Shown: in pieces, positions 12,487 to 12,788 of the stretch
How the letters are laid out: every line of letters begins with the position of its first letter
How positions within the stretch are numbered: the first letter of the stretch is position 1
DNA from: Escherichia coli
Lineage (GTDB): Bacteria > Pseudomonadota > Gammaproteobacteria > Enterobacterales > Enterobacteriaceae
Reading direction: 5' to 3' (one strand)
DNA length: 64,000 nt
NCBI RefSeq assembly: GCF_001677475.2
Contig: NZ_CP015229.1
Program-made: the position numbers and the translations under genes
The notes under the pieces: model-generated
Database searches by the model: none
What the model saw: the letters and a program-made list of their open reading frames with translations, nothing else
Told to the model about the DNA's origin: nothing

Positions 12487-12732
12487 TAAGAATTTCTTTA
12501 CTGACAGGGTGAGCAGGGCGCTTTTATCCTGTCAGTTCGTTTTACTCACTTCATCCGGTGTATATACCCTTCTCGACAGTTCTTTAACGCCACTATACCC
12601 CTCACAGAGCGCTTTTACAGTGACGTTGACTTGTGACCTGTAAAGTACAATATCGCTGTGTGTAGGCGTTATACATCGCCGTAAATATGATGAAGGCAAA
12701 TGCTGTCGGTTTATGGGAAAGTTGCTTTGGGT

Positions 12733-12765
12733 AAAACAAAAAAACGGCCCCAGAAGGGGCCGTTT
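12733..12765 (-). terminator. adhE intrinsic terminator
   Basis: Hairpin aaacggccccagaaggggccgttt with an A-run on the plus strand (T-run on minus) about 25 nt after the adhE stop. Confidence 0.65.
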
Positions 12766-12788
12766 ATGTTGCCAGGCAGCGCTACTGA

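Follow-up and report, generated by a model that had tools for sequence, protein, structure and literature searches.

An uninterrupted tdk-adhE spacer with an intact adhE terminator hairpin, a site that holds ISZ or IS4 in other Escherichia coli genomes

The window analyzed here is a 64,000-nucleotide stretch of Escherichia coli DNA in which two convergent genes, tdk and adhE, are separated by a short intergenic spacer. Gene boundaries were taken from the open reading frame (ORF) list, and the hairpins were located by pattern scan and RNA folding. The features of the region are as follows.

9800-10708, + strand: galU
10852-11265, - strand: hns
11869-12486, + strand: tdk (thymidine kinase), colinear with MG1655 tdk (b1238)
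12487-12788, no strand: uninterrupted tdk-adhE spacer, 302 bp from ORF bounds; the MG1655 equivalent is 1301 bp
12500-12536, + strand: intrinsic-terminator-like hairpin of tdk, with a U-rich tail at 12537-12543
12742-12765, - strand: stem-loop of the adhE intrinsic terminator, with a T-run at 12741-12732
12748-12759, no strand: unoccupied IS4-subgroup target, present in a single copy and centred on the hairpin dyad (12753.5)
12789-15464, - strand: adhE, aligned to MG1655 adhE (b1241)
15941-16588, + strand: ychE

The stop codon of tdk is a TAA (12484-12486), with another in-frame TAA after it, and that of adhE lies at 12789-12791, leaving a spacer of exactly 302 bp. A first-pass annotation, made from the sequence, had put the two stops about 300 bp apart with two convergent terminator hairpins between them. 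Both parts of that description hold: two convergent intrinsic-terminator-like hairpins occupy the spacer. The tdk hairpin starts 13 nt past the stop codon. The pattern scan lists a weaker version of it at 12513-12532 (+ strand), which RNA folding extends to a 37-nt stem-loop followed directly by UCGUUUU; the fold of the 74-nt region has a free energy of -21.7 kcal/mol (z = -2.6). The adhE hairpin, 23 nt past its stop codon, has a 10-pair stem and a loop of 4 nt. On the - strand, positions 12765-12742 read AAACGGCCCC-TTCT-GGGGCCGTTT, followed by TTTTGTTTT, and the pattern scan enters the terminator as AAACGGCCCCTTCTGGGGCCGTTT plus TTTTGTTTTA, with 7 of the 10 pairs being G-C. The region folds at -25.9 kcal/mol (z = -3.6), and none of 200 shuffled sequences was as stable. 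Flanked by an A-run and, opposite, a T-run, it is a palindrome of the bidirectional type. Both genes thus have, 3′ of the stop codon, the GC-rich stem-loop and immediate U-tract of an intrinsic terminator, and the two hairpins are predicted to terminate tdk and adhE transcription.

The pairing of both stems is retained in relatives. For adhE, the stem reads GGCCCC/GGGGCC in the window, GGTCCC/GGGACC in Citrobacter (locus L012) and GGCCTC/GAGGCC in Salmonella (locus L017), so that pairing is kept across Escherichia, Citrobacter and Salmonella through compensatory and G-U changes. The tdk hairpin is conserved in other Escherichia: its stem is CTGACAGG/CCTGTCAG in the window, and an A-T pair is replaced by G-C in the E. 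albertii stem, CTGGCAGG/CCTGCCAG, a compensatory change. These comparisons, a by-eye reading of a few sequences, argue that both hairpins are under structural constraint. A stem variant of the adhE hairpin, ACGGTCCC/GGGGCCGT, found in E69 (a divergent lineage labelled E. coli) and in isolate 624, retains its pairing on the adhE strand alone, by means of a G-U pair, which suggests that this hairpin mainly serves adhE.

The first-pass annotation had also suggested that MG1655 carries the pseudogene insZ, in about 1 kb of IS-related sequence, between tdk and adhE. The annotation of NC_000913.3 bears this out, with ‘insertion sequence:ISZ’ at 1294426-1295405 and the pseudogene insZ (b4573) in that interval. 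Since tdk ends at 1294144 and adhE starts at 1295446, the MG1655 spacer is 1301 bp long, and the claim that it differs from the short spacer of the window stands after alignment. Using blastn, we found that the window matches MG1655 in two colinear segments, one ending at 12758 and the other restarting at 12749, an overlap of 10 bp. The inserted MG1655 sequence is a 989-bp element with imperfect inverted-repeat ends, CAATGCCGTTCACTTAAG... and ...CTTAACTGATCGGCATTG, flanked by a direct 10-bp target duplication, CCCAGAAGGG, which occurs once in the window (12749-12758) and twice in MG1655, around the element. The extra 999 bp of MG1655 is therefore the 989-bp ISZ/insZ remnant plus the 10-bp duplication, and as 302 + 989 + 10 = 1301, the two spacer alleles differ in length by the ISZ insertion alone.

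Within the adhE terminator, the duplicated 10 bp make up the loop together with the inner part of the stem, and the duplication has its centre at the hairpin dyad. The blastn identity of the flank is 96.2% next to tdk and 98.8% next to adhE, and both flanks follow the occupied allele colinearly as far as the IS termini, as expected of an empty allele. No IS4-subgroup element is present at 12487-12788, and a motif scan together with tblastn searches using IS4 and ISZ-like transposases revealed no IS4/ISZ end motif, inverted-repeat remnant or transposase similarity anywhere in the 64-kb window. At the adhE-proximal junction of MG1655 only a 3-pair CCC/GGG remnant of the hairpin is left, and adhE transcription in that strain probably reads on into ISZ, in the sense direction of insZ. 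K-12 adhE, a much-engineered gene, is without its native terminator, and strains like the source of the window retain theirs.

ISZ has an intact relative on plasmid pUSDA5905_2, a 1433-bp element that shares 94% identity with ISZ and codes for a transposase of 446 aa. MG1655 insZ aligns to this protein only at residues 1-250 and 381-446, two blocks that match a 426-column internal gap in the DNA alignment. The ISZ-like and IS4 transposases are 39% identical, and both contain PF13006 (Nterm_IS4) and PF01609 (DDE_Tnp_1) above the curated cut-offs. The ends are CAATGCC.../...GGCATTG for ISZ and TAATGCC.../...GGCATTA for IS4, and the exactly matching duplications measure 10-13 bp. The IS4 subgroup is characterized by -AATR- ends, direct repeats of 10-13 bp and marked specificity for the target arms (PMC2266710). 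In domains, ends and repeat length, the elements that fill the site in other strains agree with this subgroup. ISZ has been described as ‘IS4-like’, single copy and immobile, never having transposed in mutation-accumulation lines (PMC5009759). Under the name ISZ′ (insZ) it was recorded once in K-12 and not at all in the W, B and fourth comparison strains (PMC3032704), and insZ has been placed between tdk and adhE (PMC3465305). As a presence/absence difference the polymorphism is already on record; the available text of PMC3032704 and PMC5009759 describes no insertion point, terminator target or alternative IS4 alleles. No account of an ISZ or IS4 insertion in the adhE terminator came up in our literature search.

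To determine how the site varies within the species, 5426 complete E. coli genomes from RefSeq, a sample heavily biased towards clinical lineages, were searched with four separate junction-specific BLAST queries, and matches at ≥80% query coverage were counted as follows.

Empty spacer: 2203 of 5426 genomes
ISZ/adhE junction: 1885 of 5426 genomes
IS4/adhE junction, orientation 1: 1138 of 5426 genomes
IS4/adhE junction, orientation 2: 190 of 5426 genomes

Together the four states account for 5416 of the 5426 genomes. Inside the adhE terminator, about 59% of complete E. coli genomes, K-12 included, have an IS4-family element. Not every occupied allele is insZ, as about 1330 genomes carry a true IS4 in the same hairpin. 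In O18 and DETEC-S792 the site holds IS4 sequence of 1145 or 1425 bp with the ends TAATGCCAGTCAGTTAAG... and ...GGCATTA, which is about 51% identical to ISZ in DNA sequence and 98.7% identical to the K-12 IS4 that encodes insG. It is flanked by a 12-bp duplication, CCCCAGAAGGGG, corresponding to 12748-12759 of the window. Isolate 624 (locus L087) and S1-IND-02-A (locus L089) contain an intact IS4 (1501-2926) with an 11-bp duplication, inserted in the orientation opposite to that of the common B2-type allele; the junction of this reverse allele is the one present in 190 complete genomes. The duplicated stretch accordingly spans 12749-12758 (10 bp) for ISZ; for IS4 it is 12748-12759 (12 bp) or 12748-12758 (11 bp), depending on the orientation. 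Since the three occupied states differ in the length of the duplication and in the element or its orientation, they represent at least three independent insertions into this one hairpin in E. coli, namely ISZ and IS4 in each of two orientations.

In the reverse-orientation alleles a strong hairpin with a T-run lies just inside the IS4 end, after the junction, and it is suggestive that this hairpin may restore a terminator for adhE. The IS4 end itself (locus L087, 1501-1540) forms a perfect hairpin with an 11-bp stem, GCCAGTCAGTT-AAGC-AACTGACTGGC, followed by TCTTTTT. This hairpin, which overlaps the terminal repeat and starts 4 bp in from one terminus, resembles a terminator facing inward that would block read-through from a flanking gene. 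A further arrangement was seen in E. coli FY26 (locus L099, NZ_CP101741.1), in which a partial IS4 links adhE to the nanX-nanY region, the site of the K-12 IS4 (insG). This appears to be a large rearrangement by recombination between an IS4 in the adhE terminator and the IS4 at the nanX-nanY site.

The direction of change was examined in an outgroup sample consisting of relatives of Tdk, one genome per species, for which 80 loci were returned. The spacer measures 326 bp in E. albertii, 302 bp in E69 and 316 bp in SCPM-O-B-8794, the last two being divergent lineages labelled E. coli. It is 138-246 bp in Citrobacter species, 199 bp in Salmonella enterica arizonae and has a median of 130 bp in the 76 enterobacterial species with convergent tdk and adhE on the locus. 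The adhE hairpin is intact in E. albertii, E69, SCPM-O-B-8794, Citrobacter and Salmonella arizonae. Short spacers and an intact hairpin in the outgroups argue that the uninterrupted arrangement is ancestral, as the first-pass annotation had proposed; the flank haplotypes and the scar-free window support the same polarity. Over 462 bp of the tdk-side flank, the empty allele of PK-F-10132 differs from ISZ-bearing MG1655 at one position and the window from the empty allele of 2017.09.02CC at one position, with 13 differences between the window and IS4-bearing DETEC-S792 and 10 between the window and IS4-bearing isolate 624. These values fit insertions that arose on pre-existing empty haplotypes.

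We therefore consider it very probable that the window carries the ancestral, never-occupied tdk-adhE allele, as one part of an explanation that also includes independent IS insertions elsewhere. Two convergent genes would each have their own Rho-independent terminator, and the A-run/GC-palindrome/T-run hairpin of adhE would also have the form that IS4-subgroup elements prefer as a target. In other E. coli lineages the hairpin was struck independently at least three times (by ISZ, and by IS4 in two orientations), each time by staggered cuts centred on the dyad that split the terminator and duplicated 10-12 bp. The lineage of the window would have escaped, keeping the adhE terminator intact and the spacer at 302 bp. 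That the site was never occupied in this lineage rests on parsimony, since precise excision or recombination would give an identical sequence.

A site that once held ISZ or IS4 could have been restored by precise excision, with the 10-12 bp direct repeats slipping against each other, or through homologous recombination that brought in an empty allele. Empty and occupied alleles do occur on almost identical flank haplotypes, a pattern also expected from excision or short-tract recombination. Recombination is frequent in E. coli, and the haplotypes of the flank have a mosaic appearance, that of isolate 624 being in part window-like and in part O18-like. However, the outgroups show the empty state to be the older one, the window contains no scar, other empty alleles share its haplotype (32 records at ≥99% identity), and defective IS elements are rarely excised precisely. 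ISZ was also without any activity in the mutation-accumulation lines (PMC5009759). Given the outgroups and the inactivity of ISZ, excision or replacement is less parsimonious than a site that was never occupied, and we regard it as improbable.

The remaining part of the spacer is its core. Small ORFs of 44-55 codons are listed on both strands of the spacer, and the window differs from MG1655 at 32 of 462 compared positions, mostly in the core, which is an unusual divergence between E. coli haplotypes. These observations could be taken to mean that the roughly 200-bp core (about 12545-12740) encodes a separate product (a small RNA or a small protein, for example). However, a permissive Rfam scan of 11200-13000 found no known RNA family in the spacer, no match passing E = 0.1; the four chance-level matches (E = 0.16-0.71) all lie on the terminator hairpin only. 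MG1655 has no annotation in the core, which is almost unalignable between Escherichia species, although the flanking genes differ by about 1-4% and both terminators are kept. Such fast, unconstrained divergence argues against a function, and a product encoded by the core is very improbable. The small ORFs were rejected as genes, as the core is not conserved between Escherichia species. Within E. coli, the core (12540-12740) occurs as two deeply divergent haplotypes.

The source of the window is not MG1655, as had been suspected in the first-pass annotation from the short spacer, a single tyrT gene and an islet between rluB and btuR. Identity to MG1655 is 97.9% over the shared ~64 kb, and there are four structural differences, namely one tRNA-Tyr gene, no ISZ, no IS5U and an extra 1565 bp between rluB and btuR. 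Both additional indications proved correct, since the window has one tRNA-Tyr (GTA) at 5881-5965, compared with the tyrT and tyrV tandem of MG1655, and the extra 1565 bp (43873-45437) is absent from MG1655. A short spacer produced by an assembly artefact or by a laboratory deletion of insZ in a K-12-type genome has no evidence in its favor and is ruled out for practical purposes, as the window is about 2% divergent from MG1655, has three other structural differences and shares its uninterrupted arrangement with 2203 complete genomes.

The repeats around the tRNA-Tyr gene of the window align to MG1655 in several registers. Between ychE and oppA, a single CTAA at 16838-16841 represents the empty target of the MG1655 IS5U copy and fits the IS5 target YTAR. 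The 43873-45437 segment contains two ORFs, one for a 340-aa protein that has a lipoprotein-like signal (44041-45063) and one of 102 aa (45073-45381). The segment was found in 896 of the 5426 complete E. coli genomes, where it is annotated as two hypothetical proteins.

Among complete RefSeq E. coli genomes the best identity was ≤98.1% over positions 1-25000 of the window and ≤98.4% over the rluB-btuR segment (43600-45700), while the spacer is 99.0% identical in strain 2017.09.02CC. By these matches the source lineage appears to be poorly represented among complete RefSeq E. coli genomes; it may be a Shigella or a rare phylogroup. The empty site narrows the source little, because 2203 of the 5426 complete genomes have the same state.

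We also compared the adhE terminator with other sites occupied by IS4. According to a report from the 1980s, IS4 reportedly prefers an AAA-N20-TTT target, including the pheST attenuator; our literature search did not find that report. Eight IS4 copies from different genomes were used to reconstruct targets at seven distinct loci: the adhE terminator (both orientations), a hairpin adjoining hypT, the mug-rpoD terminator, the raiA-bamD terminator, the K-12 IS4 (insG) site and, within coding sequence, yicI and agp. All of these sites have an A-rich arm, N18-20 and TTT with a centred duplication of 11-14 bp. The A-rich arm is AAA at every site except hypT, where it is GAA, and most of the targets are terminators of the A-run/GC-palindrome/T-run type. 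The sites of K-12 ISZ, of the plasmid ISZ-like copy and of a remnant in Enterobacteriaceae bacterium LSJC7 fit the same A-arm/N18-20/TTT pattern, the copy on pUSDA5905_2 sitting in the GC hairpin CCCGCGAAGCGGG. The reconstructed sites agree with the reported AAA-N20-TTT preference.

The LSJC7 remnant (locus L076, 4915-5307, AMFN01000002.1) is a 373-bp ISZ-like sequence with both inverted repeats. It lies inside that genome's own adhE terminator, AAAAAAAACCG-CCATATGGCG-GGTTTTT, in which CCATATGGCG is the 10-bp duplication, and its orientation is opposite to that of K-12 insZ. It represents a fourth independent insertion into the orthologous adhE terminator, in another genus. We infer that the adhE terminator is a preferred rather than merely tolerated target of the IS4 subgroup. 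However, comparable perfect or near-perfect AAA-palindrome-TTT sites number six in the 64-kb window, or several hundred per genome by extrapolation, so that repeated insertions into the adhE terminator are suggestive and not proof of a hot spot. The five others in the window (10804-10828, 16602-16625, 27963-27986, 48058-48083 and 60661-60686) are candidate IS4-subgroup targets. With two IS species, at least four independent entries and dyad-centred cuts, a true cross-genus hot spot is possible, but we lean against it. If it were one, IS4-type transpososomes would recognize a structural feature, for example an extruded or symmetric A-run/palindrome/T-run terminator, which high transcription of adhE might favor, and the four-state polymorphism would be a natural experiment on target choice and on the effects of a split terminator.

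The window keeps the original terminator arrangement of tdk and adhE in an E. coli-group genome other than K-12, which matters little in itself: the finding is an ordinary, already documented strain difference in the presence or absence of an IS. The only thing added here is the repeated use of the adhE terminator, intact in the window, as a target of IS4-subgroup elements, which gives rise to a four-state E. coli polymorphism. The locus is consequently a clean marker (empty, ISZ, IS4 forward and IS4 reverse) that covers 5416 of 5426 genomes, and the repeated dyad-centred insertions are a compact illustration of target choice in this subgroup.

Compared with known systems, the MG1655 locus has the same genes, orientation and flanking sequence as the window up to the IS termini. 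Unlike the window, it has the 989-bp ISZ remnant and a second copy of the 10-bp duplication, so that its adhE terminator is split into halves about 1 kb apart, whereas that of the window is whole. At the level of strain IS tables, such as that of the E. coli W genome paper, the presence of ISZ in K-12 and its absence from other strains are already recorded. The hairpin of the window, AAAAAAACGG-CCCCAGAAGGGG-CCGTTT, shares the A-rich arm, palindrome and T-rich arm of known IS4 sites, but those sites are filled in other strains while the target in the window is empty and the 64 kb contain no IS4-family sequence. Like bidirectional Rho-independent terminators between convergent genes, the window has a GC stem with an A-run and a T-run between convergent stops; unlike them, tdk in the window has its own separate hairpin 200 bp away.
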